Positions 6,570 through 30,245 are shown, counted from the first letter of the stretch. The stretch: 32,000 nt of DNA from Mycoplasma mobile 163K (GCF_000008365.1 NC_006908.1:720001-752000); one strand, 5' to 3'. The notes: generated by a model from the sequence alone, not told the origin. Made by a program: numbers and translations.

Positions 6570-7636
6570 TTTGCTACCTCTTTTGCAATTATTTTCGCTA
6601 ATTCATATTTTGCTTTATTTTGAAATTGAATTTCTTGATTATTAATAAATAAAGTTCCATTTATTTTAGAAGTATTCATTGAATTTATTTGATTATATAA
6701 AATTCCATCTAAATTTAATTTTTGCATTTTATCTTTTGCATTTTGAATGTCTTCATCTAGCTTAAATCCTAAAATTTTAATGTTCTTGTTCAGCTTTCTT
6801 AGCTCTGTTAAAACATCTATGTTATTTTTTAATTCAAGAGTTTTAATTGAGTTTTTTTTGATTTTTCTTTCTGATTTTTCAACTAAAAAATCGCTTATTG
6901 CAGCACTTGAAATATAAATATCATAATCTTTAACTTTATCCAAAATTTGTTGATTAGAATTTTTTGATGCATCAACATAATCAACATAAAATCCTAAAAG
7001 TTTTAGTTCTTTGATAATTAATTTCCCAAATAAACCACTACTATCATTTGAAATGAATCTAATTGGATCTAAATAAATTTTAGATGCTCCATAACTTACA
7101 ATTACTTTTTTTGATGTTTTTTGATTATTTAAAATATTTGAAGCAAAATCTGCAATTTCTTCAGGTTCTGCCATTCTTCCAATTGCATCATATCCTTCAC
7201 TTAACTTTCCATACATTGGGCCAATTATATAATGTCCTCAATTTTCTAAAGTTTCAATGTGATTTCTTTTTAAAATAGATTCATACATTAAGTCATTCAT
7301 AGAAGGGGCAAAAAGAATTGGTTTATTTGTTGCCATTAACATTGCTAGAGCCATATTGTCACAAATTCCATTCACAAATTTTGAAATACTATTTGCACTT
7401 GCTGGAGCCATTATAAAAAGATCAATTCGTTTAACAAAAGCAATGTGTTCAGATTGTTTTGTTAAGTCTTGATTTAACAAAACAGGATTTAATTCCTGAA
7501 TATTTTTGTAATGAATTAAAGCATTAGTCGTTAGAATGATAAAGACTTCGAATCCTTTTAAAAAAAGAATTTCTTTTAAAGTCTTTATTTTAATAATGGC
7601 TACACTTGATGTAACAATAATTCCAATTTGTTTCAT
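6554..7636 (-). CDS. coaBC: Bifunctional phosphopantothenoylcysteine decarboxylase / phosphopantothenate-cysteine ligase
   Basis: Track ORFs 7238-7636 (flavoprotein CoaC half: ...IMAPASANSISKFVNGICDNMA...APSMN) and 6566-7216 (CoaB half: ...GRMAEPEEI...DPIRFISNDSSGLFG) join in frame through TGA at 7240-7238. The TGA at 6568-6566 is also read through, to TAG at 6556-6554. 360 aa. Confidence 0.88.
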
Positions 7637-7781
7637 ATTTTGCCTCTTCTAGCAATGTGAATTTCATCACAATATATTTTAAAAATTATATAACAAATTC
7701 TAAATTTAAACATAAGTAACTAATTAATATTAATTTTTAAGATTGTTTTAAATATATTTTTCAAAGTGGTATTATTTTTTT

Positions 7782-8522
7782 ATGAAAAAATATATTGAAA
7801 TTGGATTTACCAATAAAAGTTATACTGAAAATGGTTTTTTTTATCAAGAAAAAATAAGTAATAATTTTAATCATAAAATTGATTATTCAATTTTAAAAAA
7901 ACTAGATTTTGTCCCAAAATTTTTAGGACAAAAAAATAATATTAACAAGTGAGAATTGATTGATGTTATTCCTCTTGAATTAAATAAAGAAAATATTTCA
8001 AGAATAGCAAAAAATTTCAGAAAAATTCATGAATCTAACTTAAAATTCCCACCTTTTAATCTTGCAGGTAGAATAAAAGAATATCGAAAAATAATGAATG
8101 ATAAAAAAATTTCTTATCCTGAAATGGAAAAATACTATAAAAAAGTAAATACTATTTTAAGAAATATGGATAAATTAACCCCTTGTCATAATGATTTATA
8201 TTCAGCAAATATTTTGATAGAAAAAAATACTAATAAAATGTTTTTTATAGATTGAGAATATTCATCTTGTGGGGACAAACATTTTGATTTGGCTTATTTT
8301 ATTGAAAGCAATTTAAAAACAGATAAAGAAGAAAGTATACTTTTAGAAGCTTATGAAGCAAATTATGACTATTCATTTATCTTATTGCAAAGATTATTAG
8401 TGAATTATCTTATTGTACTTTGATTGCATACTTTTGAAACTCCTCCTTTTGATCCAAAGCCTTTTTTAAAAAAGATGATTGAATTAGATTTAAAGCATCA
8501 AGAATGAATAAAGAAAAATTAA
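7782..8522 (+). CDS. licA: Choline/ethanolamine kinase family (LicA-like) phosphotransferase
   Basis: ATG at 7782. In frame with track ORF 7956-8255 across TGA. ...TPCHNDLYSANILIEKNTNKMFFIDWEYSSCGDKHFDLAYFI... matches the Brenner (HNDL..N) and IDWEY choline-kinase motifs. 246 aa. Confidence 0.75.
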
Positions 8523-8530
8523 TATAAAAT

Positions 8531-9223
8531 TTATTCTTCAATTTTATCTAATTTGTAAATTTTAAAAATTTTGGCCTTTTCAAGCGCTTTAACAATTGTT
8601 CAATCCAAAATATAATCGGGGTATAATCCTCTTCCTTTTGAAATAAAAATAGTTTCTTCTGTTTCTTCTTTAAGATTATTTGGTTCACTATAATTTGAAC
8701 TAACTTTTATATTTTCTTCAGAATCAATGACAATTTTATTGAAACTTAAATTTCTATTGATTTCAATTTCTCTTGTTGTTTTTATTTCTTTGCTTAAATC
8801 TTGTTCAAAATAGTCCGAGCTTATTTCTACATTTGAAGCAGAATTTTTTTCTGTTGTTTTAGCAATTGATTCTTTTTCTTCTGCTATTCACTTTGAAAAT
8901 TTATAAATTGCAATGAATTGAAAAATAAATCCAATTCTAAAAAAGAACCCTATAACAAGTCCTAATAAAAGAAAAATTGAAATTTCACTTGGTAATTCAG
9001 AAGATTTTGCTAAAGATAAAATACTTAAAATAAATCATACTATTGCTAATATTAATGTAAAGGAAAAAATGGTAATATTTAAAAATATGTTAGGTATTTC
9101 AACTATAAATATAATTGCTAGGACAAAAAAAATAAATAATAAAATGTCAAAAAATGCTGCTCATTTTGCAAATAGTCGAGATTTTAGCAATGTATTTTCA
9201 TTGTATTCTAAGTTAAAAATCAT
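8531..9223 (-). CDS. Membrane protein, paralog 1 of the GFIFQFIA family
   Basis: Hand translation (ATG 9223-9221, TAA 8533-8531, 3 internal TGA): N-terminal helices including LLLGLVIGFFFRIGFIFQFIA, an acidic/Ser-Asn linker, and C-terminal ...GRGLYPDYILDWTIVKALEKAKIF... Absent from the track because of TGA codons. Confidence 0.65.
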
Positions 9224-9285
9224 ATTTTAATTATAAACAAATTTAACTCCAAATTGTAAATGTATTTTTAAATACATTGTTAATT

Positions 9286-9963
9286 TTATTCTTGTTTATT
9301 TATTTTAAAAATTCCTGCTTTTTCAAAAACTTTAAACGATGTTCAAGTTAAAATGTATTCAGGATATGAATTTTTGCCTGATTTAATTAATAAAGTTTCT
9401 TCTATTTCAGATGAATTATTTAAATTTGATGTTATCTTTACATTTTCAGTAGATTCAACTTCAATTTTTTTGTAACTATTATTATTTTCTAAAATAATAG
9501 GAATAGGTAGTGATCCCTTTTTCAAGTTTTCTTCACTATTAAAATTAGAACTATTATTTTGATTTTTAATGTCATTGCTATTCTCTTTTGGAAATTTATT
9601 ATGATCTGAATAATTTAAATTATCTAATAAAATGGAAATTTTTGCACTTGCAATAAATTGGAAAATAAACCCAATTTGGAAAAAGAAACCAAGAATAAGT
9701 CCTAAAAGCAACATTGTTGAAACATCATTAGGAACTGAATCTGAATTTATAACACTCATTATACTCAAAACTAATCAACTAATACTTGTTACTATTGCAA
9801 CAAGAAACAAAATAATTGATAAAATTATTAATCCGGGAATAAAAAAAACAGAAGCTACCAAAAAGATTGCTAATATTAATGAAATAAAGGAAACTATTTC
9901 AAAAATGGCTGCTTTTCTTGCACAAGATCTTATCTTTAATAATTGAGAAATTTTATGATTCAT
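9286..9963 (-). CDS. Membrane protein, paralog 2 of the GFIFQFIA family
   Basis: Track ORFs 9775-9963 and 9343-9768 join across TGA. Read-through of TGA at 9345-9343 extends to TAA at 9288-9286. Contains LLLGLILGFFFQIGFIFQFIA, a low-complexity Asn/Ser linker, and C-terminal ...NSYPEYILTWTSFKVFEKAGIF... Confidence 0.65.
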
Positions 9964-10058
9964 AGTGATATTATAGCAAAATTCTAGAAATATAAATTCT
10001 CATTTTTAAAAATAAAATCACTACTTTAAACTATTAAAATTTAGTTCATTTGATAATA

Positions 10059-10934
10059 TTAATTTTTTAGCCTTTTAATTTCATTTTTCATTTTAATAGA
10101 TGCTATAAATTGAAAAACAAACCCTATCTTAAAAATAATTCCTAGAAATAGTCCTAATCCAAGCATTAATTGTATAAATGATTTATTACTATTTTTAGAT
10201 AACGTTAATCAATTTACAAAAATTCAAATACTAAAAAATAATCAAACTATCGAACTAATAAAAAATAAGGACATAAAAAACATAACAAGAATAAAAGCAC
10301 TATCTAGTGAGCCATTTATGAAAATATTTATTAGTAAAAAAATTGTCGAAAAAATTATAGAAACAATAGAAACAAGTTCAAGAATTACTGTAATAACTGA
10401 AATTTTAAAATTAAATTTGTAAACTTGTAAATTGGAACGAGGCTCAATTTTTTTAATATTAAAAGAAATAAAAATACTTGCTATAAATTGAAAAATAAAA
10501 CCTATCCCAATAAAACCTAAAATTAAACCTAAATTCAACATTAAAACAATTGATGATTTTCTATTTTCAATTATTGTAGAGGAAAAATGAGTTGCTTTTT
10601 TTAAAGCAAGAATACTATATGTGAATCAAAATGGAACACTAAAAAATAAAGAAAATAAAATAATAAATGCTGTATGCCAAAAAGTATAAATAATATGTAT
10701 TAAAAAAAACTCAAGTGAAAACTTAGATGAAAGTGGGTTGAGTGAAGTTGAAAGTGAACTAGAAAGTGAACTAAATACCAAACGAAAGAAAATTCCTAAA
10801 ATAATTGATAGAAAAACAGTTAAACCTAGAATTGATGCTTTAGAAGAAAGGTTAAAAACTTGTTTATATAATTCTAAAGATAATTGATTGTTTATAATCT
10901 TTTTTTGGTCTTCATTTACTTGTAAGTTATTCAT
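10059..10934 (-). CDS. Polytopic membrane protein, paralog 3 (two clear copies plus one possible degenerate copy of the family helix)
   Basis: Track ORFs 10626-10934 and 10242-10541 are in one frame and join across TGA. The frame continues to TAA at 10061-10059. Contains ILGLTVFLSIILGIFFRLVF, MLNLGLILGFIGIGFIFQFIAS and MLGLGLFLGIIFKIGFVFQFIAS. 291 aa. Confidence 0.6.
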
Positions 10935-11039: not shown

Positions 11040-11113
11040 TGGCAGGGGCTACAGGAATCGAACCCGTGCACATGGGTTTGGAATCCATTGTACTACCACT
11101 ATACTAAGCCCCT
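11040..11113 (-). tRNA. trnW: tRNA-Trp (anticodon CCA)
   Basis: Reverse complement is AGGGGCTTAGTATAGTGGTAGTACAATGGATTCCAAACCCATGTGCACGGGTTCGATTCCTGTAGCCCCTGCCA. Acceptor AGGGGCT/AGCCCCT, D arm GTAT-AGTGGTA-GTAC, anticodon loop TTCCAAA, T arm ACGGG-TTCGATT-CCTGT, discriminator G, encoded CCA. 74 nt. Confidence 0.9.
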
Positions 11114-11180
11114 AATAATTTTTATATTATAGTTAAATAAAAATAATTTAAAAATAAAATTTATTTTCTTTATAATAAAC

Positions 11181-11306
11181 ATGTTAGCCAATTGACATGA
11201 TAAAGATTATTGAAAAGCAAGGCAAATTGCTGATCAACTCTTTTGTGAATTAAATTCATGACTCATTCAATTAATTATTATGCTAACAATGATTTGGCAT
11301 GATAAT
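11181..11306 (+). repeat. Two imperfect direct repeats about 100 nt apart upstream of the GTP cyclohydrolase II operon
   Basis: ATGTTAGCCAATTGACATGATAA (11181-11203) versus ATGCTAACAATGATTTGGCATGATAA (11280-11305). Shared ATGYTARC and TGRCATGATAA cores. A small hairpin AGCAA-GGCAAA-TTGCT lies between them. Confidence 0.5.
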
Positions 11307-11338
11307 TAACTTTAATTTATTTTATTAAAATAAATTGC

Positions 11339-12370
11339 ATGCCTTTTCATTTTATGAAGGGACTTATGATTATAAAAGAGAATAATTTCAAAAAATTTTT
11401 TTTGAAATTATCACTTAATGAAAAATATTCTGATTTAGTTTTCACAGAATTAAAAAAATATGAAAATCAAGAATCTGAAAAAACAGCTACTTACAAATTT
11501 AAAATAAGTAAAAAAATCATTTTAATAGAAGGAAAAGAAGATAGAATTCTTCTAAGAACACTGAAATGAATTGACGATATTGTTGATAAAATTCTTCGTG
11601 AATTTAATTTGAGTTTTGGAATCAATATTAATTTTAAAAACAGATTTACTAGCAATGAAAATAATAATTTAATTATTTTTAATTTTTATAGCAATGATTT
11701 GAAAATTGCTTTGGAAGAATTAGATGATCTAATTTTGGATTTAAATATTTCTGAAAAGCAAAATTTAATTTCATTTAGATTTGACTTTGATTCTGTTTTT
11801 CAAGAAAGTAAAAGTATATTAATGGAAACATCTGATGGATTTTTCAACATGAAATCTTTTGAAGTTCCATCGCACAATAAAGAATTTGTAATCAAATGAA
11901 ATGGGGACTTAAAAAAAATAGTTAATGCAAGAATCCACTATAAATGTATGACTTCAGAGGTTTTTGGTTCAATTATGTGTGATTGCAAAGATCAATTGGA
12001 AAGCTTTAATGAATTAATGAAAAAAGAGGGTGGACTTTTACTTTATGCTTATGAAGAAGGAAGAGGATTCGGAATGTTACATAAATTAAATGCTTATTAC
12101 AACACTGAAAAAGAAGGTTTAGATACTGTTGATGCCATGATAAAAGAGACAGGAAAAACAGAAGCAAGGAAATTTGATATGGCAGGAGAAATAATAAGAA
12201 AATTAGGAATTAAAGAAGTCAATTTATATACAAATAATCCAAGAAAAATAATTCCTTTATTAGATAGAAGAATCAAAGTAAATAGGAAAAAACATTGAAC
12301 TGAAACAAAGTCTAAAGAAGCAAAGAAATATACTGAAGATAAAATTAAAAAAATGGAGCATTTAGAATAA
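11339..12370 (+). CDS. Fusion protein: unknown N-terminal domain of about 170-200 aa plus C-terminal GTP cyclohydrolase II (RibA-like) domain
   Basis: Track ORFs 11339-11569, 11609-11899 and 11948-12298 share one frame and join across TGA. Stop TAA at 12368-12370. C-terminal half ...ARIHYKCMTSEVFGSIMCDCKDQL...LLYAYEEGRGFGMLHKLNAY...GLDTVDA...LYTNNPRK matches RibA, including the three Zn-ligand Cys. The start is uncertain (ATG at 11339, 11354 or 11366). Confidence 0.8.
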
Positions 12371-12371
12371 T

Positions 12372-13943
12372 ATGAATGATGAAAAAAAGAAAGGACTCAT
12401 AATTAATTTTTCTAATTATGAATCAGAAAAAATTGATGTTTTAATTGATAAACACAAAGTAGAAAAAAATAATTGAACTCTATTATCTTCTTTTAAAGGA
12501 GAGAAAAAGAGATTCGAAAACAAATTAGAGCATTATTATTTACCTTGAGGGTATCATTCTTCTATTACTTTTAATAATGCTATTTGACTTTATAGAATGA
12601 AATTTAAAGAAAATTTAGCTCATGTTAAAAAAATTATTTTTATTAATGTCCATGAAGAAATTAAAAAATTCCTTGAAGAAACTGAGCAAGAAATAATTGT
12701 TGATGAAACCAAAAAATTTTTGATAAAAATAGAAAAAGAGATAGAAAGTGAAAAATTTTACATCATTATTGAATCAGAAGACAATAAATTGATAAATAAA
12801 ATTATGTCTTATTCTGCAATTTCTCATTTTAATAAAAGTAGGGAAAAATTTTACAACAATTTTATAATTGGTTGGCTTTTTGAGATGAGAAAAATTTTTA
12901 AAAAAACAAATTATTCATTAGCATATGAATATGCTTACAAATTTTTTACAGAAGAGAAAATTAAGAAAAATTTTGAAGAAAAAAGGAAGTTTATTTATTC
13001 AAATCAAAAGAGTAATAAGGATAATTTGAAAAGCATTAATTTAGGCAATGAAGGAAGAATTTATTTAAATTTAAATTTAAATAAATTAACAAAAAAATCT
13101 AATCTTTCTAGCATGAAAAACAAGAAGGATTCCTCTGAAAAACAATTTGCCTATGAAGAAATGATAAATCATGAAAAAGATTTAAAAATTTGTGCTTCAG
13201 ATGATCAAAATTTAAAAAAAAATCTTTCAATTCAATATGAAGATATTGTCTATCCTACTAATACATTAAAGTTTTCAGATGCCATTCACTCTTTAAGAAA
13301 GCAATACAAAGATAAATATTTTATTGATGATAATAAATTGGAAAATTTTGGAAAAATAAACAAAATAGGTCCGATTTGGAAAATAATTTACAATGATTTT
13401 GGTTCATCTTTTTTAAAAATGAAAATTTTTGATGAAACGGAATTCAAAAAAAATTTTTATGGAATAATAAGAGATAATTATTATTTAGTTAAGAATTTTA
13501 GAAATGTAAATTCAAGAGAAATAATAAGATCAATGAGATCTTACATTACAGAAAAGGATTTTGAAGAACTGAAAAAACAGGACCCACAATTCAAATTATT
13601 TTACGATGCTGTGTTTGAAGAATCAAAAAATAATATAATTTATTTATGTCATGAAGAAATTGAATTGGAAAAAATTGCAGAATATCATTCTATTCATATT
13701 TGTGAAAAAAATATTTCTACTTTAAAAATAAGAAGAGAAACTGAATTTAATAATGACAAAGAAGTGCATTACATTTATGATTTCGAAAAAGATTTATCGA
13801 CTAAATGTGATTTTAATAAAGCTGAAGAATTTTTAAAGAAAATTCAGGAAGATACACCCTTAGAAAATTTAGAAAATCATTTTGAAACAAGTGAAAATTT
13901 AGTTAAAGAAAATGAATCAAAAAAATGAATAATCATAAAATAA
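12372..13943 (+). CDS. Hypothetical protein, 523 aa, Lys/Glu/Asn-rich, no recognisable domain
   Basis: ATG at 12372, 1 nt after the upstream stop. In frame with track ORF 12597-13928. The terminal TGA is read through to TAA at 13941-13943. No hydrophobic segments. Confidence 0.7.
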
Positions 13944-14671
13944 TTGGTCTAATAACAACTACAGGGAAAAGGGACTTAACAAAAAGTTTAAACTCAATGA
14001 AACAGCAAACAAAAAAATTACATGATATTTATATTGCTTCTGAAAAGCAAATTAATATAAATGAAAATATTTTGATTAACCCTTTTACAAAAGGTCTTGC
14101 AAATAATACAATGCAAGCATTAATTAGAATAAAAGAAATTTATAAAAATGAACAAATTTACATTGCTACTTTAGATGATGATGATGAATGAGATTTAAAT
14201 TTTATTAAAAATGGAACTAAATTAGTTCAAAAAAATTTTAATTTTATATCAGGATATTTGCAATATAAAAGCAATCATAGAATTTTGGATACATTAGAAT
14301 TTGAGAACACTTTAACATATAATGATTTTTTATATGGTAACCCGGGAGTGGAAGGATCTAATAAAATTTTTTGTCTTGATTTAGCTTTAGAATCTGGCGG
14401 AATGCCTAAAAATATTAAGACGGCAACAGATCGAGCTTTTAATATCAATTTGCTAATGCACCCAGAAGTTAAATTTGGTGTGATTGAGAAAGTAGTTGCT
14501 TATCACTATGTTGATTCAAAAGACCGTCTTACAAATAAAAAAGATAAAAAAGAAGAATTAAGAAAATTTTACAAGCATTTTTGACATTTAATAGATAAAA
14601 ATAAAATTAATGATATTAATAAAAGACATTTAGATTTGCATCAGATTGAAGAGGTGATAAATTGAAAATAG
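13925..14671 (+). CDS. GT-A fold glycosyltransferase (family 2-like)
   Basis: Track ORFs 13925-14191 and 14258-14584 share a frame across TGA. Stop TAG at 14669-14671. N-terminus IIGLITTTGKRDLTKSLNSMKQQT resembles the GT2 ...PTYNR...L.S...QT start. DxD motif ATLDDDDEW. 248 aa. Overlaps the upstream gene by 19 nt. Confidence 0.6.
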
Positions 14672-15687
14672 TTTATGCTTTAACAATTACAAATCAAGAA
14701 AGTGAACAAATTTTATTAAATAATCTTGCTCATTTGAAAAAGATGAATCTTAATTATTTTTTATTAATTAATACAACAAAAGAAGATCTTATAAATAAAT
14801 TTAAGACTAATAAAAATACTTTAATAATCAACAAAGTAAGTGATATGAGAAATTCAAGAGTCACTTTACATCAGGAGGCATTTAAACTTGATGCAGATAT
14901 GTATTGAATTTTAGATAGTGATATTGATTTTACAAATTTGAATGTAGAGGATTTTTTAAAAATTAAAAAATATTCTAAAATATATGATTTTATTTCTTTA
15001 TATTATAAAAAAGATTCTCCTATTCCAGCATTTTATACATTAGCATCTTCTTTAACTGATTTTTATTTTCATAAACAAAACTTAATAGGATTTGAAAAAA
15101 ATTGATTTGATGATAGTGATTTTAATAGTTCAGATTATCAAAAGTATACTTTTATAGAGAATTATAATAATTTAAAAGAAATTTTGTCAGGCAAATCTTA
15201 TGCTAGAGATATTTGAGAATTTACAGACAAAGAAAATAGTAATGATACGACAACAGGAGGAGCAAGTATTTACTTTAATAAAAATATTTTATTAGAAGAA
15301 TTTGAATGAAAAAAATATAAAGGCAAATCTTTAATATGATACGATTCATATCGAACATTTAATCTAAGCAAAAAATATAGATTTTCTAAGGTTCCAATTT
15401 TTGTAAATCATCTACGCCACTTTGGATCAATTCAACTAAGCTGAGAAAGTGTACAAAGATACATTATTGGTTTTAATGAATATATGAGTTTTAAAGATAA
15501 ACAATGAAATAAAGAATCTTTAATTATTCATACATTAGAATTGTATTTTTACATTAAGGGAATGTGAAAAAAAATAACAAAATTAAATCTTAATATAGAT
15601 GAAATAGTAAAAACAGAAATAAATAATTTCATGAATTGTAACATTTACGAAATCATAGAAGAGGTAAGAAAATGAAAATATCAATAG
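14662..15687 (+). CDS. Second putative GT-A glycosyltransferase
   Basis: TTG start at 14662, 4 nt after GAGGTGA. Track ORF 14662-14907 continues across many TGA codons to TAG at 15685-15687. WILDSDIDF (DxD) and ...TTGGASIYFNKNIL... 341 aa. Overlaps both neighbours. Confidence 0.5.
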
Positions 15688-16430
15688 TTGGTTATGGTCA
15701 TGTTGGACAAGCAATGCATAAATTATTCAAAGAAGCAATCATATATGATATACATAAATCTAAATATAATGATATAGAAAAAATTAAAAATAGCGATGTT
15801 GTTTTTGTATGTGTTCCAACACCTATGAAAAAAAATGGATCTTGCGATACATCATTTGTAGAAGATGTAATATCAAAAATTGATTCTAAATTATTTATTA
15901 TTAGATCAACAGTTTGAATTGGATTTACAGATTATGCTTCAGAAAAATACAAAAAAAATATTGTTTTTCAACCTGAATATTATGGGGAAACTACAAACCA
16001 CCCTTTTTCTAATTTGGAAAATCAAAATTGAATAAGTTTTGGTGGTGAACAAAAAAATATTGATAAAGCAATTGAAGTTTATCAAGAAGTTAAAAATTCT
16101 AATGTGAAAATAATTCAAAGTTCAGCAAAGGAAATTGAACTTGCAAAATATATGGAAAATGCGTTTTTAGCCTTAAAAGTTACTTTTGTTAATGAAATGT
16201 ATGATTTAGCTGAAAAAATGAATATTAATTATAATCTTGCAAGAGAAGCTTGAATTAGTGATCCAAGAATTGGTTCTTCTCATACATTTGTTTATAAAAA
16301 TAATAGGGGTTTTGGAGGTAGTTGCCTACCAAAAGATATAGCTTCTTTAATTTATCAAGCAGATGAAAATGGAGAAGATTTAGATTTAATAAAAGCTGTT
16401 GTTCTAAAAAATAAAAAGTATCAAAAATAG
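15672..16430 (+). CDS. UDP-glucose/GDP-mannose dehydrogenase family protein, short form lacking the C-terminal nucleotide-sugar-binding domain
   Basis: MKISIVGYGHVGQAM (Rossmann GxGxxG), central helix ...AKEIELAKYMENAFLALKVTFVNEM..., catalytic-Cys motif GFGGSCLPKDI. The protein ends about 35 aa later at TAG 16428-16430. 252 aa. Confidence 0.8.
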
Positions 16431-16443
16431 ATACTTTTTATTT
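16414..16443. terminator. Rho-independent terminator at the operon end, shared with convergent ychF
   Basis: AAAAGTATC (16414-16422), loop AAAAATA, GATACTTTT (16430-16438), then T-rich sequence. The hairpin includes the TAG stop. Confidence 0.6.
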
Positions 16444-17878: not shown

Positions 17879-19249
17879 ATGAAAATGAAAAAAAATACAA
17901 AAATTTTAATTAGTTCTTCAGCAGCAATTTCTGCTTTAGGAATTATTCCTGCTGCGGTTATTGCTTGTGGAACAACTACAGAAACAACTGAAAGCATTAC
18001 ATCAACTTCAATTGTAAATGGTGTTTTAGGAAAAAAATTTGGAGCTGCTAATGATAATGGCCCATTAAGAGCTGAAACACCTCAATTAAGTTTTAAATCT
18101 GTTACTGGAGCAACTTCGTATGCTTTAGTTATTTTAGATAATGAAGCAACAAATGTAATTGGTGTTCCATTTATTCATTGAGCAATTGCTAATATCAAAA
18201 TTAAGGCTGATGCAAATGGGATGATTAACATTCCGGAAAATATTGCTTCAGAAGCAAATGCTGCTGCAAGAGCTCTAATTACTCAAGGAAGAAATTCAAG
18301 TTTTATGAATGCTAATAGTGCAATTCCAGGAGGATTTCAAAGACCAGATTCTGTTGGATATTTTAGTCCGTTTCCTCCTAATGCAGGACATTATTACCAA
18401 ATTTCTGTATTAGCTTTAGATAAAGAAGTTACAGGATTAGCAGAAGGATTTACTTTAGCTGATCTTTATTCAGGAATTCAAACTCAAGGAATAAAAATTG
18501 TAGATAGAAAGTATGGTGATTTTTTCTATAATCAAGTTGTTCAAAGACAAGGAAGTGATTCTTTATTTGAACACCCAGCAAATTCACTTACAACTGCACC
18601 AAGATTATACAGAGGTGTAGTGCCTAATATTGCAAATATTGCTTCAACTTCTGTAACAAATGGAAACTTACAAGCTAACTTTTTCAATGCTAGAACAAAT
18701 GGAGTTAATGCTACTGCTGATACACTTGGACAAAATAGCACTATTCCTAATTTAAGTTGAAATGCTGTAAGTGGAGCAAATTCATATTTAGTTACAATTT
18801 CTAATTACAGTTTTTCTAATATTAATCAAGCTCCATTTACAAATTTTGTTGCTGTTGTTCCAGCTGAAGCCAATACAACAAATAATAAAGTGACTTTACC
18901 GTCTCAATTAGCAAATGCTAATTCAACAAATGGTGTAATTTATGGAAAAAATAGTAGTTCAACTGACAATGTTATTGCAACAGGAGGAGCTTCATTAATT
19001 AATGTTATGTTAAAACAAAATGCTAATTACTTTATGCCTCAAGGGCGTGCTAATTGAATTATTGTGGTTAATGTTTATGCTTTAAAAAGTAATATTACAA
19101 CTGCTAGTGGTACAAATCCAGTTCTTACAAATGGATCTCATTTCTTAAATGAATTTACTACTAGAGCTGCTAATCGTGATGGAATTATAGCTGCTGGAGA
19201 ATTTGTTTTTAACTTACCAGGTAGTGGTACAACAAATGCTACTATTTAA
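17879..19249 (+). CDS. Lipoprotein with two tandem PEBP/YbhB-like domains
   Basis: Signal peptide plus lipobox ...AAVIAC|GTTTE. Track ORFs 17879, 18221 and 19064 share one frame and join across TGA. Domain 1: ...TPQLSFKSVTGATSYALVILDNEA...FIHWAIANI... and ...YFSPFPPNAGHYYQISVLALD, matching the PEBP signature GPxPPxGxHxYxFxxYALD. Domain 2 (NLSWNAVSGANSYLVTI...IIVVNVYAL) is a degenerate repeat. 456 aa. Confidence 0.8.
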
Positions 19250-20425: not shown

Positions 20426-21960
20426 ATGAAAGTGAAAAAATTCAGAAAAAATTTAATTGATTCTTCAACTGCAATTTCTGCTTTAGGAATTATTCTTGTT
20501 GCAGTTCTTGCCTGTGGAACAAATACAACAACAGTGCCCACAACAACACAATCTACAACCCAAAGAATTAGTTCTACTTCAATTATTAATGGAGTCTTGC
20601 AACCTAAATTTGGAGCTGCTAATGATAATGGGCCTTTAGGCGCTATTACTCCTCAAATAAGTTTTAAAGCTGTTTCTGGAGCAGTATCATATGCTTTAGT
20701 AATTATAGATAATGAAGCAACAAATGTAATTGGGGCTCCATTTGTACATTGAGCTCTAGCAAATATTAAAATTGCTCCTGATGCTAATGGAATGATTAAT
20801 ATTCCAGAAGATTTAGCCGCTCAAGCTAATAGTGCTATTAGAGAATCTTTAACAATCGGAAGAAATTCAGGTCATCGATATTTTAATGATTTTAGCGATT
20901 TTAACGATCCATTTGAAGGAAGGAATTTTTGAAATTCACAAATTCCAAATAATTTTAGACTATTGAATCCTAATAAGTGAAGTAGTTCAGATTTAAGTTT
21001 TGTTAGGACTCAAAGTGGATATTATAGCCCATTTACACCTAATGCAGGACATTATTATCAAATTTCTGTGCTTGCTTTAGATGCAGATGTGCCAGAAATA
21101 CAAGAAGGATTTGCTTTAGGTCATTTATATGAAAGAATAAAAACTTTAAATATTAAAGTTTTAAATAGAATGCATGGTGATTTTTTCTATAATCAGGTTG
21201 TTCCAAAATCAAAAATAAGAGGGACAGGAAGTGAGGAATTTTTCCTTTCATGAGACAATATTATTGATTGATCATTTATGCATCCTGAAAATTCTCCTGT
21301 AACTGCACCGAGATTATATTCAGAAAATATTCAAACAATTTCAAACATTAAAAGTACTTCAGTAGATGCTAATGGTAATTTATTTGGTAAATTTTTAAAC
21401 GATAGAAAAAATGGAGCAAGTGGATATGGTGATTGAATTGTAACAACAAATAGTACAATTCCTAATTTATCTTGAAACTCAATAAATGGAGCAAATTCAT
21501 ATTTAGTTACAATTTCTGAATACCGGAATGTATTTAATCAGGTTTATACTAATTTTGTAGCTGTTGTTCCATCAGCAAAAAATACTGTAAAAGGTGTTGT
21601 TTCTTTACCTTCTCAATTAGCAAATCTTGCTCCTAAAAATGGAATTATTTACGGATTGAATAATAGCACAACAGAAAAAACACTTGGACCAAAGAAAAAG
21701 ATTTTCTTTGAAGTCCTGAATCTCCAATTACAAATCATCAATATTTTATGCCACAAAAACGTATTAATGCAACAATTGTTGTGAATATTTATGCTTTGAA
21801 TAGTAATATCATAAATGCTGTTGGAGATGTTCCTGCAATTACAAATCACACTTCTTTTTTAAGTGAATTTACAACTAGAGCTGCAACTCGCGGAGAAATT
21901 ATTGGTGTTGGGGAATTTGTTTTCAAACTACCTAGTAGTGATGAATTCATTTTTACTTAA
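20426..21960 (+). pseudogene. Paralog of the PEBP-like double-domain lipoprotein with a broken reading frame near its 3' end
   Basis: Lipobox ...AVLAC|GTN. The frame of ORFs 20426 and 21068 runs to TAA at 21812-21814. The conserved C-terminal 70 aa (YFMPQKRINATIVVNIYAL...GEFVFKLP) are in a different frame (track ORF 21748-21960). Confidence 0.6.
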
Positions 21961-26364: not shown

Positions 26365-27093
26365 CTAGTTTCTACCAGGAAATCCTGTAACTACAATAGT
26401 TTTTTCGAGTATTCTTCCGTTTTTAGAACCTATTAAGACAACACTTAATCTTCCTTCACCAAAATGCACACTACTCTGTACATATCTTAATGAGAATTGA
26501 ACTCCATTTTGAGGATTAGGAGTATTAACAATTTTATCAATACTTCATACATCATTTGATCAAGCTGGAGTTTTTCCAAAATCAGTTATACTTAGACTTG
26601 AAATTGTGTTTAATTCATTTTGAATATCTCTATCTACTGCAATATTAATTTGCTCTTGAATTTCTTCTGGACTAAGAACTCTAAACCCATTTACAATAAT
26701 TGTTTTTTCTTGAGTTAAATCACCAATAGAACCTACAAGAGTTACAACAACAAATCCACTTGTGTCACTACCACTAGCTGTTTCACTAATTTTTATAGAA
26801 AAACTTACACCATTAGAAGAAACTGGCACTTTAATAAAATCTGTAATATTTTGATTATTTACTTGTGAAGGTAAAGTATTTTTTGCAACTTCAAAAATTT
26901 CTAAAGTATTAATTTTTTCAAGTTCATTTCCTAAAATATTTTTTTGTTGCTCAATTGTGATAATAGGATTAATTGGACCAACTGGACCTACTTCTTTAGG
27001 GGTTTTTGTTGCTACAATGCTTACTGGAACTATAATAACTGTGCTTCCTAAAACTGCTGCTGCTGTTCCTAAAAATAAATTTGCTTTTTTCAT
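26365..27093 (-). CDS. Modular surface protein, one-module member (S module plus C-terminal module)
   Basis: ATG at 27093 after AGAAAGTG (the track start at 27105 is a GTG inside the RBS region). N-terminal hydrophobic anchor MKKANLFLGTAAAVLGSTVIIVPVSIVA with no Cys. Pro-rich linker. Module ...NGVSFSIKISETASGSDTSGFVVVTLVGSIGDL...IIVNGFR. Read-through of TGA at 26562 to TAG at 26367-26365 adds ...NGVQFSLRYVQSSVHFGEGRLSVVLIGSKNGRILEKTIVVTGFPGRN. 242 aa. Confidence 0.8.
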
Positions 27094-27129
27094 AATAATG
27101 TACACTTTCTATATAAATAATTATATAAT

Positions 27130-27135
27130 TACTAA
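27130..27135 (-). promoter_or_regulatory. -10 box (TATAAT on minus strand) of the one-module surface gene
   Basis: Minus strand reads ...AAAAATTTTTAGTAATTATATAATTATTTATATAGAAAGTG...ATG. Confidence 0.4.
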
Positions 27136-27334
27136 AAATTTTTGCTTTTAAAATAATGTTTTTAACTATCCTTTAAAAGGATTTTAAAATTTAAGCTTAT
27201 TTATATTGTCTAAATTTTAAAATTTTTATTTGTAATTAAAATAACAATAAAATTATAATTCTTTTATATTTAAATAGTTAAAATATTTATTTTTTTCTTA
27301 TAAATTCACCTTTTAAGATTTGATACACTAAATA

Positions 27335-27368
27335 AAAAATTACAGCAAGAATTTTTGCTGTAATTTTT
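27335..27368 (-). terminator. Terminator of the two-module surface gene
   Basis: AAAAATTACAGCAA / TTGCTGTAATTTTT 14-bp stem, loop GAATTT, 20 nt beyond the stop. Confidence 0.7.
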
Positions 27369-27388
27369 TAAATTAAGATTTTGTGTTT

Positions 27389-28456
27389 TTAAACAGGGAA
27401 TCCTGTAACTACAATAGTTTTACTAATTGTTCTTCCATTTTTAGAACCTGATAAAATAATACTAAATCTTCCTAAACCAAGATGAACACTACCATCTACA
27501 TATTTTATTGAGAATTGAACTCCATTTTTACTTTGCGGAATATTAACAAGGCTTGTAGCGTTTCCTGATAAAACAGCAGTTTGTCAAGCAAGATTATTTG
27601 CAAGAGATGTTTTTTCTAAACTTGAAATTGAGTTTAATTCATTTTGAATATCTCTATCTGCTGCAATATTAATTTGTTCTTGAACTTCTTCTGGGCTAAT
27701 AATTCTAAAACCATTTACAATAATTGTTTTTTCACTAGTTAAATCGCCAATAGAACCTGCAAGAGTTACAACAACAAATCCACTTGTGTCACTACCACTA
27801 GCTGTTTCACTAATTTTTATAGAAAAACTTACACCATTAGAAGAAACTGGCACTTTGATAAAATCTGTAATATTTTGATTATTTACTTGTGAAGGTAAAG
27901 TATTTTTTGCAACTTCAAAAGTTTCCAAAGTATTAATTTTTTCAAGTTCACTTCTTAAAATATTTTTTTGTTGTTCTTTAAGTTGAGCTCTTTCTTGCTC
28001 TGTTTGGAATCCATCAATAGTAATTTCTTTTTGAACAATAACATTTCCAATAGAACTAGTTACAATAATTACTAATTCTCCGGTAACATCATTTGCTCCA
28101 TTTGGTTTTAAAGACACTTCAAAATTTACACCATTCACATTATCAATTTGAATAAAATCTTTAAGATTAGTTTCATTTACTTCAGATGGTAAAGTATTAG
28201 GAATCTTATCTACATTAAGCATGATATTATTAGGTAAATTAGTTGTGCCAACAACTATAATACTTGGAATATTTCCTAATTCTTTTTCTATTTGTTCTTT
28301 AATTTGTTGCTCAATTGGACTAATAGGATTAACTGGATCAACAGGACCTACTTCTTTAGGAGTTGTTTTTGTTGCTGCAATACTAGCTGGAACTATAACA
28401 ACTGTACTAACTAAAGTTGCTGCAGCCCCTGCTAAAAATAAATTTACTTTTTTCAT
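27389..28456 (-). CDS. Modular surface protein, two-module member (E + S + C-terminal module)
   Basis: ATG at 28456 after AGAAGGTG. Anchor MKKVNLFLAGAAATLVSTVVIVPASIAA. E module ...NGVNFEVSLKPNGANDVTGELVIIVTSSIGNVIVQKEITIDGFQTEQERAQL, then the S module. TGA at 27586 is read through to TAA at 27391-27389 (…NGVQFSIKYVDGSVHLGLG…TGFPV). 355 aa. Confidence 0.8.
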
Positions 28457-28478
28457 ATTTAACACCTTCTCTACTATT

Positions 28479-28487
28479 ATTATATCA
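28479..28487 (-). promoter_or_regulatory. Extended -10 (TGATATAAT on minus strand) of the two-module surface gene
   Basis: Plus-strand ATTATATCA at 28479-28487, 23 nt upstream of the ATG at 28456. Confidence 0.45.
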
Positions 28488-28815
28488 TTATTAATAAGAA
28501 CTTTTTTTAATACAAGATTTTTAACAATGTTTTAAAATAGTTTTTAAATTTAGAATCTTTATACTAATAATCAAAATATATTTTTTGAATTAAATTATAA
28601 GAATATTTGCTTTTTGTTAAATTTATTATTTTCTTAAAATAAAATCTAAAAATTTTTATGTAATTAGAGCTACTCACAAAATTTCAATTAGTAATAATCA
28701 AGATATTTCTACTATTAGATTTACATAAAATCTTATTTAATAAGAAAAAATATATTAACTTTTTGAGTAAAAATTAAAAGTATTTTCAAGATCAAAAAAA
28801 TTTGATATGTTCATT

Positions 28816-28849
28816 AAAAAATACAACAATAATTTTTGCTGTATTTTTT
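28816..28849 (-). terminator. Terminator of the three-module surface gene (one mismatch in the stem)
   Basis: AAAAAATACAACA / TGCTGTATTTTTT. Homologous in sequence and position to the 27335-27368 hairpin. Confidence 0.5.
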
Positions 28850-28868
28850 AAATTAAGATTTTATGTTT

Positions 28869-30245
28869 TTAAACAGGAAATCCTGTAATTTCAATAATTT
28901 TACTAATTGTTCTTCCGTTTTTAGAACCTATTAACTCAATTCTGAAATTTCCTAGACCAAAATGAACACTTCCATCTACATATCTCAATGAGAATTGAAC
29001 TCCATTTTTGCTTTGTGGAATATTAACAAGGCTTGTAGCATTTCCTGATAAAACAGCAGTTTGTCAAGCAAGATTATTTGCAAGAGATGTTTTTTCTAAA
29101 CTTGAAATTGAGTTTAATTCATTTTGAATATCTCTATCTGCTGCAATATTAATTTGTTCTTGAACTTCTTCTGGACTAAGAGCTCTAAACCCATTTACAA
29201 TAATTGTTTTTCCTTGATTTAAATCACCAATAGAACCTACAAGAGTTACAACAACAAATCCATTTGTATCGCTACCGCTAGCTGTTTCACTAATTTTTAT
29301 AGAAAAACTTACACCATTAGAAGAAACTGGCACTTTGATAAAATCTGTAATATTTTGATTATTTACTTGTGAAGGTAAAGTATTTTTTGCAACTTCAAAA
29401 ATTTCTAAAGTATTAATTTTTTCAAGTTCACTTCTTAAAATGTTTTTTTGTTGTTCTTTTAATAATTGAGCTCTTTCTTGCTCTGTTTGGAATCCATCAA
29501 TAGTAATTTCTTTTTGAACAATAACATTTCCAATAGAACTAGTTACAATAATTACTAATTCTCCAGTAACATCATTTGCTCCATTTGGTTTTAAAGATAC
29601 TTCAAAATCTACACCATTAGAAGAAACTGGCACTTTGATAAAATCTGTAATATTTTGATTAGTTACTTCTGAAGGTAAAGTGTTTTTTGCAACTTCAAAA
29701 ATTTCTAAAGTATTAATTTTTTCAAGTTCACTTTTTAAAATGTTTTCTTGTTGTTCTTTAAGTAATTGGGCTCTTTCTTGCTCTGTTTGGAATCCATCAA
29801 TAGTAATTTCTTTTTGAACAATAACATTTCCAATAGAACTAGTTACAATAATTACTAATTCTCCGGTAACATCATTTGCTCCATTTGGCTTTAAAGATAC
29901 TTCAAAATCTACACCATTTACATTATTAATTTGAATAAAATCTTTAAGGTTAGTTTCATTTACTTCAGATGGTAAAGTATTAGGAAACTTATCTACATTA
30001 AGTATGATGTTATTAGGTAAATTAGTTGTACCAACAACTATAGTGCTTGGAATATTTTCTAGTTCTTTTTCTATTTGTTCTTTAATTTGTTGTTCAGTTG
30101 GATTAATAGGATTAACAGGCCCAACAGGATTAACAGGTCCTACTTCTTTAGTATTTTGGTTTGCTACAACACTAAGTGGAACTATAACAACTGTACTTGC
30201 TAAAGCTCCTGCTGTTACTCCTAAAAATAAATTTGCTTTTTTCAT
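28869..30245 (-). CDS. Modular surface protein, three-module member (E + E + S + C-terminal module)
   Basis: ATG at 30245 after AGAAGGTG. Track ORF 29064-30245 shows two near-identical E modules then an S module. TGA at 29066 is read through to TAA at 28871-28869 (…NGVQFSLRYVDGSVHFGLGNFRIELIGSKNGRTISKIIEITGFPV). 458 aa. Confidence 0.8.
29311..29918. repeat. Intragenic tandem repeat, period 300 nt, about 2 copies, near-identical
   Basis: 29311-29618 matches 29611-29918 at offset 300 with only scattered substitutions, for example ACACCATTAGAAGAAACTGGCACTTTGATAAAATCTGTAATATTTTGATTA in both copies. Confidence 0.9.

Follow-up and report, generated by a model that had tools for sequence, protein, structure and literature searches.

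A five-gene mycoplasma cassette encoding a GTP cyclohydrolase II fusion, a predicted kinase-like protein, two putative glycosyltransferases and a truncated sugar dehydrogenase

In a 32,000-nucleotide stretch of the Mycoplasma mobile 163K genome (NC_006908.1:720001-752000, here called the window) we analyzed a block of five genes, g1 to g5, which we propose to be a single translationally coupled operon that specifies a soluble biosynthetic module. Its first gene joins a GTP cyclohydrolase II (GCH-II) domain to an orphan domain, and the four genes that follow encode a protein with a predicted protein-kinase-like core (g2), a probable and a structurally predicted glycosyltransferase (g3 and g4) and the core of a nucleotide-sugar dehydrogenase (g5). 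The complete cassette recurs in one fixed order in at least 12 loci, representing about nine independent contexts, all of them in Mollicutes. With a probability of roughly 35%, we favor the reading that the five proteins form a soluble pathway that would convert GTP into a glycosylated, uronate-bearing and phosphorylated pyrimidine derivative.

Open reading frames (ORFs) were called with translation table 4, in which TGA encodes tryptophan. Under table 11 every gene between 11.3 and 16.4 kb was fragmented, and the in-frame TGA codons rule this table out. The DNA has a G+C content of about 23%. Five plus-strand ORFs, whose products are AAT28083-AAT28087, lie between a leader and a terminator:

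11114-11365, plus strand: 5' intergenic region or leader, bounded by tRNA-Trp on the minus strand and by g1, with promoter-like -10 and -35 sequences and AAGGGA
11339-12370, plus strand: g1 ORF, 343 aa
12372-13943, plus strand: g2 ORF, 523 aa
13925-14671, plus strand: g3 ORF, 248 aa; probably a small, soluble GT-A (GT2-like) glycosyltransferase, with D84-D-D-D87
14662-15687, plus strand: g4 ORF, 341 aa, TTG start; predicted soluble GT-A-fold glycosyltransferase with D85-S-D87, FDDSDFN, TTGG-IYF, WYDSYRT and a C-terminal helical bundle
15672-16430, plus strand: g5 ORF, 252 aa; truncated nucleotide-sugar 6-dehydrogenase with NAD-binding and central catalytic domains
16409-16443, plus strand: A+T-rich terminator hairpin with a 14-bp stem, a 7-nt loop and a U-rich 3' side, between the convergent genes g5 and ychF

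The tight packing of these same-strand genes, which had been described in an earlier reading of the DNA (the original prediction), was reproduced exactly under table 4: a 1-nt gap separates g1 from g2, and overlaps of 19, 10 and 16 nt join g2 to g3, g3 to g4 and g4 to g5. The Shine-Dalgarno sequences of the downstream genes sit within the preceding genes. The terminator, first placed at 16414-16443, proved to be a slightly longer hairpin that folds as RNA at -13 kcal/mol (z = -7.5) and was matched in stability by none of 200 shuffled sequences; a G+C-biased terminator scanner did not detect it. The junctions, the internal Shine-Dalgarno sequences and this terminator are our reasons for proposing one operon with coupled translation. 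No transmembrane-like segment was found in any of the five proteins, in keeping with the original prediction (maximum KD19 score at most 0.91, compared to 2.61 for an adjacent membrane ORF), and all five are accordingly listed here as predicted soluble proteins.

At the 5' end, matches to the promoter consensus in the leader were at background level, a riboswitch search with Rfam returned tRNA only, even at E<=1, and no leader element was conserved over 14 cassette loci. The start of g1 had been set at 11339, and a plus-strand ORF does open there. However, the 334-aa NCBI model begins at M10 (ATG at 11366), AAGGGA is positioned as a Shine-Dalgarno sequence just 5' of it and the homologues start near there, which makes 11366 the likelier start.

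The recurrence of the block, together with its pattern of selection, argues that it is more than a chance arrangement. Full cassettes are present at the loci L001, L006-L012, L016, L017 and L019, and that of L020 is interrupted by a contig end. No partial cassettes were seen on long contigs, and overlapping junctions were found wherever the contig was long enough. Had the five genes never been found together in related genomes, the idea of a functional unit would have lost its ground; every locus long enough to show the order shows the same one. The hosts are M. mobile, the snailfish gut symbiont 'Candidatus Mycoplasma liparidae' and uncultured Mycoplasma and Ureaplasma known from metagenome-assembled genomes. 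Protein identities between the window and L001 range from 36 to 66%. In two cassette pairs, dN/dS was 0.07-0.40 across all five genes, with the highest values in g2 (0.28-0.40), showing that each of the five is under purifying selection. Two loci carry an additional gene, namely a GalE-type UDP-hexose 4-epimerase after g5 in L009 (11821-12801) and a weakly matching alpha/beta-hydrolase ORF in L016. Searches of phage, plasmid and IMG/VR collections found no cassette copies. Since the cassette is patchily distributed over lineages and its flanks vary, its occurrence implies horizontal movement among a few mycoplasmas.

The g1 protein consists of two parts:

11366-11803, plus strand: orphan domain of ~145 aa at the N-terminus (aa ~10-155 in the 343-aa ORF), with conserved LKKY, T-KWIDD and F-FDFYS
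11813-12370, plus strand: C-terminal GCH-II domain, aa 159-342 plus the stop codon

The C-terminal domain matches PF00925 over model positions 5-162 of 165 (E 2e-36, 125.4 bits with a cutoff of 23.3) and scores just within the NCBIfam RibA subfamily NF001591 (148.6 bits, cutoff 148). The Zn-binding C203, C214 and C216 (C-x10-C-x-C), E240-G-R-G243, the catalytic Y253 and R277, and T298-N-N-P-x-K303 are invariant in nine cassette copies and three stand-alone RibA proteins, which bears out the earlier statement that the Zn-ligand cysteines and GCH-II motifs are kept. These residues correspond to residues of E. coli RibA. The domain is predicted to be catalytically competent. The nearest GCH-II outside the cassettes is the ordinary stand-alone ribA of an unrelated bacterium.

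The motifs of the N-terminal domain are visible in an alignment of nine cassette copies, and the domain has no match in Pfam or PDB. The possibility that it is a degenerate RibB was rejected after hhalign of its profile with a RibBA protein (probability 0.25%), and kinship with g2 was likewise tested and rejected. In L010, the g1 ORF (7215-7913) is only 232 aa long and devoid of the N-terminal domain; the close relative L012 has the full 327 aa. A frameshift or an error in assembly may underlie the short form, or the gene may be a pseudogene.

The simplest explanation of g1 would be that it is an ordinary ribA for flavin supply, located beside unrelated sugar genes by chance. This is what its GenBank name, 'riboflavin biosynthesis protein', suggests, and the score of its domain in the RibA subfamily and the listing of a ribA among the riboflavin genes of Ca. 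M. liparidae (PMC6965317) are consistent with it. We nevertheless consider this explanation highly improbable. In every locus g1 is tied to the other four genes through overlapping junctions, and it has a conserved extra domain not known from RibA proteins. As the original prediction had noted, no ribB, ribD, ribE or ribH was present in the window, nor was any found at the other cassette loci; Pfam detected no RibB domain (PF00926) in g1, and at gathering threshold no FMN riboswitch or other Rfam element preceded the six cassettes of the window and five further loci. The cassette thus shares with the riboflavin operon (ribD-ribE-ribBA-ribH with its FMN riboswitch) a GCH-II of the same RibA type with all catalytic residues, but differs from it in its invariant partners and in missing those features.

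The two systems also coexist. Ca. M. liparidae has a ribA besides its ribD-E-BA-H cluster, and riboflavin synthase (ribE) is reported to be without a homologue in other Tenericutes, which would include M. mobile (PMC6965317). Since this symbiont holds the cassette plus a separate ribBA operon, the riboflavin pathway, where present, has its own GCH-II, and in this symbiont the cassette enzyme is not the sole RibA of such a pathway. M. mobile itself should lack the riboflavin pathway. On the Ca. M. liparidae contig RHHX01000001.1 (L007/L013), the g1 homologue at 6870-7859 is a GCH-II-only gene. This homologue may be the 'ribA' that was counted in the published riboflavin reconstruction of that symbiont (PMC6965317), in which case crediting it to riboflavin synthesis was probably wrong.

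The second gene changes the chemistry that has to be explained. The original prediction had treated its 523-aa product as an orphan of unknown fold; a structural model, Foldseek and sequence motifs now overturn this, and indicate a three-domain protein with a predicted protein-kinase-like catalytic core:

12372-13016, plus strand: aa 1-~215, N-terminal alpha/beta domain in which N12, NNAFW (68-72) and W168 are conserved and a beta-hairpin insert varies
13017-13631, plus strand: predicted kinase-like core, aa ~216-420
13632-13943, plus strand: C-terminal beta-rich domain, aa ~421-523 plus the stop codon, with C426, C444 and C479 invariant and H427 near-invariant

The AF2 model of g2 has a pLDDT of 80.6 and a pTM of 0.85, with the C-terminal domain at pLDDT ~82-95. 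Each of the best 50 Foldseek matches in PDB is to a protein kinase (E 3e-4 to 3e-3, probability 0.97-1.00), and the best matches among the viral protein models of BFVD are nearly all Ser/Thr kinases. The order of secondary structures in the model is that of a kinase, with beta1-5 and alphaC in the N-lobe and alphaE, catalytic loop, DFG and alphaF in the C-lobe. The corresponding set of residues comprises a Gly loop (G225-N-E-G228), the beta3 lysine K241, D320-x-K322-x-x-N325 and D342-F-G344, and R367-D368 of alphaF also belongs to the core motifs. G225, G228, K241, D320, K322, N325, D342 and G344 are invariant in 11/11 family members, with kinase-like spacing. In contrast to this agreement in structure, profile searches of the 11 family members in Pfam and NCBIfam recovered no kinase family (Pkinase, APH or others), and hhalign of the g2 family to PKA was negative (probability 0.05%), so that the kinase assignment is one of fold and motifs. 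As far as a predicted model allows, we regard the fold assignment as strong, and from it we infer kinase activity.

The N-terminal domain of g2 has no sequence match in Pfam, NCBIfam or PDB, and the conserved Cys and His residues of the C-terminal domain possibly form a structural metal site. The family is rare, with 11 cluster representatives among 1.84 billion. Glycan-directed enzymes with a kinase fold include WaaP, POMK and Fam20B. With these and with Ser/Thr kinases the core of g2 shares the fold and the Gly-loop, Lys, D-x-K-x-x-N and DFG elements, and g2 is linked, in one case by fusion, to a glycosyltransferase, much as some kinases take part in glycan assembly; it differs from them in its lack of sequence-profile similarity and in having an alpha/beta domain before the core and a Cys/His domain after it, both unique to g2.

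The last gene encodes a dehydrogenase that has lost a domain, as the description of g5 as a 'mini' nucleotide-sugar dehydrogenase had anticipated. Both dehydrogenase domains are found (PF00984, E 3e-25; PF03721, E 4e-13), and the C-terminal UDP-binding domain PF03720 is absent by Pfam scan. The match to TIGR03026 spans positions 69-295 of 413 and that to the phage UGDH PHROG positions 13-291 of 382, and g5 aligns to residues ~75-300 of UGDH structures, which are 400-480 aa long. In alignment to these structures the catalytic residues are kept, namely the Cys of GGSCLPKD, K-x-x-x-N (AKYMEN) and PE-x-x-x-E (QPEYYGE). Because g5 has a length of 251-258 aa in every cassette copy, the truncation dates back to the origin of the cassette.

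Between these genes lie the two that had been predicted to encode GT-A glycosyltransferases, a claim that holds for g4 by predicted structure and is more tentative for g3, where the evidence consists of weak profile matches and a DDDD motif. For g4, no sequence family was matched in Pfam, NCBIfam, PHROG or PDB. Its AF2 model (pLDDT 89.7, pTM 0.89) has 97 Foldseek matches in PDB at E<=1e-3, and the best 50 are all GT-A/GT2 enzymes, with top E values of 7e-7 to 1e-4. TarS, hyaluronan synthase, chondroitin polymerase and GlfT2 are among its structural neighbors. Sixteen homologues were found, and D85-S-D87 is invariant. We conclude from the model that g4 is a predicted GT-A-fold glycosyltransferase. 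The g3 protein matches NCBIfam TuaG (E 6e-6, far below the cutoff of that model), WcaA (E 3e-3), a PHROG glycosyltransferase (E 4e-3) and the Pfam GT2 family PF00535 (E 0.05, sub-cutoff, and 9e-4 in a fused homologue). Its DDDD motif is invariant and in register with the DxD of g4, and g3 is probably a GT-A glycosyltransferase as well. In the L009 variant, g2 and g3 are fused into a single 707-aa protein (7887-10010; P0041). Sequence and profile searches of g2, g3, g4 and the N-terminal domain of g1 against PDB returned nothing significant.

The sequence shows the layout of the operon, the constancy of the module, what its domains are and that their catalytic residues are kept; for the pathway that we favor, the substrates, the order of the steps and the product are inferred from these and can be pictured as follows. 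The GCH-II of g1 would open the imidazole ring of GTP, releasing formate and pyrophosphate and leaving 2,5-diamino-6-ribosylamino-4(3H)-pyrimidinone 5'-phosphate (DARP), for which M. mobile would have no riboflavin pathway. The putative glycosyltransferases g3 and g4 would then transfer sugars from UDP-hexoses onto the GTP-derived pyrimidine or ribotide scaffold, UDP-hexoses being suggested as donors by the GalE-type epimerase that is added in L009. The g5 enzyme could oxidize the hexose to a uronic acid after its transfer, in a four-electron oxidation at C6; since the catalytic Cys, Lys, Asn and Glu are kept and the UDP-binding domain is gone, it might act on the glycoside rather than on a UDP-sugar. 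Finally, the g2 kinase, working physically with g3 as their fusion in L009 suggests, would phosphorylate the sugar or the scaffold. The pathway would thus end in a pyrimidine glycoside that bears both a uronate and a phosphate. In support of this proposal, all five proteins are predicted to be soluble, and an intact GCH-II heads the cassette in every case, without any rib partner.

A precedent for such logic exists in plants. In faba bean, vicine and convicine, which are pyrimidine glucosides, derive from GTP by way of DARPP through the GCH-II paralogue VC1, whose reaction is followed by hydrolysis, deamination and glucosylation (bioRxiv 10.1101/2020.02.26.966523), and the cassette product might be a bacterial analogue. 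Both systems pair a GCH-II separate from riboflavin supply with glycosylation. However, the Vicia faba pathway is not organized as an operon, and VC1, which is of RIBA1 type, keeps its DHBP-synthase half where g1 has an unrelated orphan domain. Neither the COG3236 N-glycosidase nor the deaminase that the vicine route is proposed to use was detected in any cassette protein, and the cassette additionally has a predicted kinase-fold enzyme, a second glycosyltransferase and a truncated sugar dehydrogenase. A bacterial comparison is the toxoflavin operon toxABCDE, which includes a dedicated GCH-II, ToxB, for a GTP-derived heterocycle other than riboflavin. An own GCH-II within the operon is thus common to both, but Pfam and NCBIfam scans identified no homologues of the methyltransferase ToxA, of ToxC, ToxD or the RibD-like ToxE in the cassette, and toxoflavin synthesis is not known to involve a glycosyltransferase, a kinase or a sugar dehydrogenase.

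Several observations weigh against this pathway. No counterparts of the vicine N-glycosidase or deaminase (PF08719 or other) were found in the cassette, and no exporter or resistance gene is linked to it. The scheme gives no role to the N-terminal domain of g1 or to the N- and C-terminal domains of g2. The kinase assignment of g2 comes from a predicted structure and motifs to which HMM libraries are blind, and the query-normalized TM-scores are 0.15-0.25, low because the protein is multi-domain. D-x-K-x-x-N loops are typical of Ser/Thr protein kinases rather than of small-molecule kinases, and with such a catalytic loop the substrate of g2 could be a protein. Lastly, three to five of the approximately nine contexts are rich in restriction-modification or defense genes, which would not be expected if the role of the cassette were purely metabolic.

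The kinase loop, together with the nature of the sugar enzymes, would also fit a cassette that serves cytoplasmic glycoconjugate or oligosaccharide synthesis. Here g5, perhaps with a partner nucleotide-binding domain, would make a UDP-uronic acid, g3 and g4 would alternate in building a teichuronic-acid-like or glycosaminoglycan-like chain, or would attach sugars to a protein or lipid on the surface of the membrane, and g2 would phosphorylate the acceptor or glycan in the manner of lipopolysaccharide-core or O-mannose kinases. The best named matches are indeed to teichuronic-acid enzymes (TuaG for g3, TuaD/UGDH for g5), the structural neighborhood of g4 includes polymerizing and wall-glycan GT2 enzymes, and several cassette copies adjoin arrays of surface lipoproteins or membrane proteins. 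Like the teichuronic-acid and glycosaminoglycan loci (tuaA-H of B. subtilis; hasABC), the cassette combines a UGDH-family enzyme with a GT2-type GT-A glycosyltransferase, and the epimerase of L009 extends this likeness. On the other hand, the always-first, intact and selected GCH-II fusion, which together with the kinase-fold protein is integral to the cassette only, would be reduced to a side role in priming, regulation or GTP sensing; in effect it is left without a function. Neither in nor beside the cassette is there an initiating phosphoglycosyl transferase, flippase, polymerase, exporter or transmembrane segment, and no Pfam family of membrane transferases, synthases, flippases or exporters is conserved beside it across loci. 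The dehydrogenase moreover lacks the very domain that would bind the UDP of its presumed substrate.

In favor of glycoconjugate synthesis, one of the hosts seems to need a source of UDP-GlcA. In vitro, a soluble GT2 enzyme of Ca. M. liparidae, snHAS, uses UDP-GlcA to form hyaluronan oligomers (PMC12036578), which implies such a need; this enzyme is encoded outside the cassette and its neighborhood, which limits its bearing on glycoconjugate synthesis by the cassette. That snHAS might be g3 or g4 itself was considered and rejected, since length and motifs differ and no ORF with DGSTD is present at the locus. Weighing these points, we regard glycoconjugate or oligosaccharide synthesis as unlikely, though it deserves to be kept in view at perhaps a little over half the weight of the pyrimidine pathway.

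The genomic surroundings raise a further possibility that the original prediction, whose core survives, had not considered. At L001 a phage-type integrase lies upstream of the cassette and GmrSD and a C5 DNA methylase lie downstream. L006 and L007 have a KAP NTPase directly adjacent to the cassette, as well as two GmrSD genes, methylases, a MutH-like gene and Abi_2. The neighbors in L009 are N4/N6 methylases, GIY-YIG, a type I restriction-modification system and an AAA_11/12 helicase. L010-L012 have lipoprotein arrays, with DUF4145 in the ORF directly downstream, and L008, L016 and L017 are surrounded by housekeeping genes. In M. mobile, the flanks consist of tRNA-Trp, three paralogous membrane proteins, coaBC/coaX, ychF and PEBP-type lipoproteins. 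With syntenic loci merged (L006, L007 and L020 count as one context), the approximately nine independent contexts comprise three that are clearly rich in defense genes, two weakly so and four that are not. The cassette is accessory DNA of variable regions, and its neighbors hint at a link to defense.

Some of these neighborhoods are of interest in their own right. The Ureaplasma-like L006 (2856-5982) and, in common with Ca. M. liparidae, L006/L007 (11747-19423) have a dense defense island beside the cassette, in which an AAA ATPase paired with an S8 peptidase, a KAP NTPase and a C5 methylase accompanied by a MutH-like nuclease are found along with two divergent GmrSD genes that face each other. 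Adjoining the cassette, L001 has a Doc/Fic-like ORF (..GNKRTA..) at 14161-14805 on the minus strand, and L019 a 562-aa P-loop protein (GNNGNGKS) resembling OLD/PrrC-type ATPases at 234-1922 on the plus strand; both seem related to defense or toxins, by motif only, with no precomputed Pfam hit.

Given these surroundings, the cassette could be a defense module or one for the modification of nucleic acids or nucleotides, carried as accessory cargo of defense islands against phages and mobile elements. It might turn GTP into a modified, glycosylated nucleotide analogue, deplete GTP, or hypermodify DNA or RNA via a kinase-activated, glycosyl-decorated base, with the fast-evolving g2, which has the highest dN/dS of the five, as sensor or regulator. 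The restriction-modification and defense neighbors at L001, L006, L007 and L009, DUF4145 at L010-L012 and the patchy distribution with variable flanks would fit such a role, and known DNA hypermodification routes employ kinases and glycosyltransferases. To our knowledge, however, the guanine-derived DNA modifications that have been described use GTP cyclohydrolase I rather than GCH-II. The five proteins had no match in PADLOC-DB v2 at E<=1 and none in PHROG beyond the generic glycosyltransferase and UGDH matches, and they contain no recognizable nuclease, transglycosylase, polymerase or other effector domain. In the four contexts without defense genes, that of M. mobile included, the cassette lies among housekeeping or surface-protein genes, and the number of independent events behind the association is small. 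Restriction-modification genes also account for a large part of the accessory DNA of mycoplasmas, so that their co-location may mark variable regions and nothing else. The absence of the cassette from the phage, plasmid and IMG/VR collections and of integration scars from the window points the same way. Finally, g2 is apparently expressed without infection: its M. mobile record is labeled 'Expressed protein', which we take to reflect proteome detection in axenic culture. A role in defense or nucleic-acid modification is in our view doubtful, to about the same degree as glycoconjugate synthesis.

A literature search, covering work other than the M. mobile genome paper, found no published account of the five-gene combination, in agreement with the original statement that no described pathway has it, and the public annotations of the five proteins are generic. 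Two of the five proteins (g2 and g4) and the extra domain of g1 belong to no sequence family. The defining features of riboflavin, capsule or teichuronic-acid, known defense, vicine and toxoflavin systems all fail here: beyond the differences already described, the cassette is not equipped with the membrane-embedded initiating transferase, synthase, flippase or exporter that teichuronic-acid and glycosaminoglycan loci have. For this reason we rate the cassette as outside every described kind of system, although its building blocks come from known enzyme superfamilies, from which its function is deduced.

More speculatively, and with somewhat less confidence than in either glycoconjugate synthesis or defense, the cassette might represent a GTP-derived glycoconjugate system of a kind not known before. 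In one form, it may produce a class of phosphorylated, uronate-glycosylated diaminopyrimidine metabolites that is used against competitors or mobile elements. In a radical form, it may provide an 'orthogonal' sugar carrier, in which a kinase-made sugar phosphate is joined to a ring-opened guanine nucleotide through the guanylyl-enzyme chemistry of GCH-II, and both GT-A enzymes and the dehydrogenase without a UDP domain may then act on this non-UDP carrier. Such a carrier would explain the loss of the UDP domain from g5, the familyless sequences of g4 and g2 and the indispensable GCH-II. What probability remains falls to something not yet imagined.

Apart from the cassette, the following features were noted in the window:

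7782-8522, plus strand: choline/ethanolamine-kinase-like (APH-fold) gene, near the cassette in M. mobile only
8531-9223, 9286-9963 and 10059-10934, minus strand: three tandem paralogous multi-transmembrane proteins with LLLGL-LGFFF-IGFIFQFIA, in multiple copies in the third; no Pfam match
11040-11113, minus strand: tRNA-Trp with anticodon CCA, 225 nt upstream of the operon
17879-19249 and 20426-21814, plus strand: paralogous lipoproteins with a signal peptide, a lipobox Cys and a phosphatidylethanolamine-binding protein (PEBP) domain, which is unusual for mycoplasma surface lipoproteins
26365-27105, 27389-28465 and 28869-30245, minus strand: three paralogous ORFs whose N-termini are nearly identical (MKKANLFLG...VIIVP) and which all end in ...ITGFP, overlapped by long antisense ORFs

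The multi-transmembrane trio, directly upstream of the cassette, is a small expansion of a membrane-protein family, and the paralogues at 26365-30245 are probably a family of variable surface lipoproteins. The host of the CCA tRNA-Trp also reads UGA as tryptophan. Integration targeted to this tRNA gene was considered and rejected: neither att-like repeats nor a tRNA fragment was present at the far end of the cassette, and there were no integration scars.

Mycoplasma genomes rank among the smallest known, and a 5-kb operon that is kept intact under selection in several of their lineages should matter to its hosts. The cassette offers several enzymological novelties, including the fusion of GCH-II with an orphan domain, a rare kinase-fold family and a naturally 'headless' UDP-sugar-dehydrogenase core. 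If its product is a GTP-derived glyco-pyrimidine, it would represent the first bacterial counterpart of the vicine route and a new fate for the first intermediate of riboflavin synthesis. Moreover, the 'ribA' calls in fish-associated mycoplasmas, which have been used to argue that these bacteria supply vitamin B2 to their host, may in part be g1 of this cassette and not riboflavin genes.

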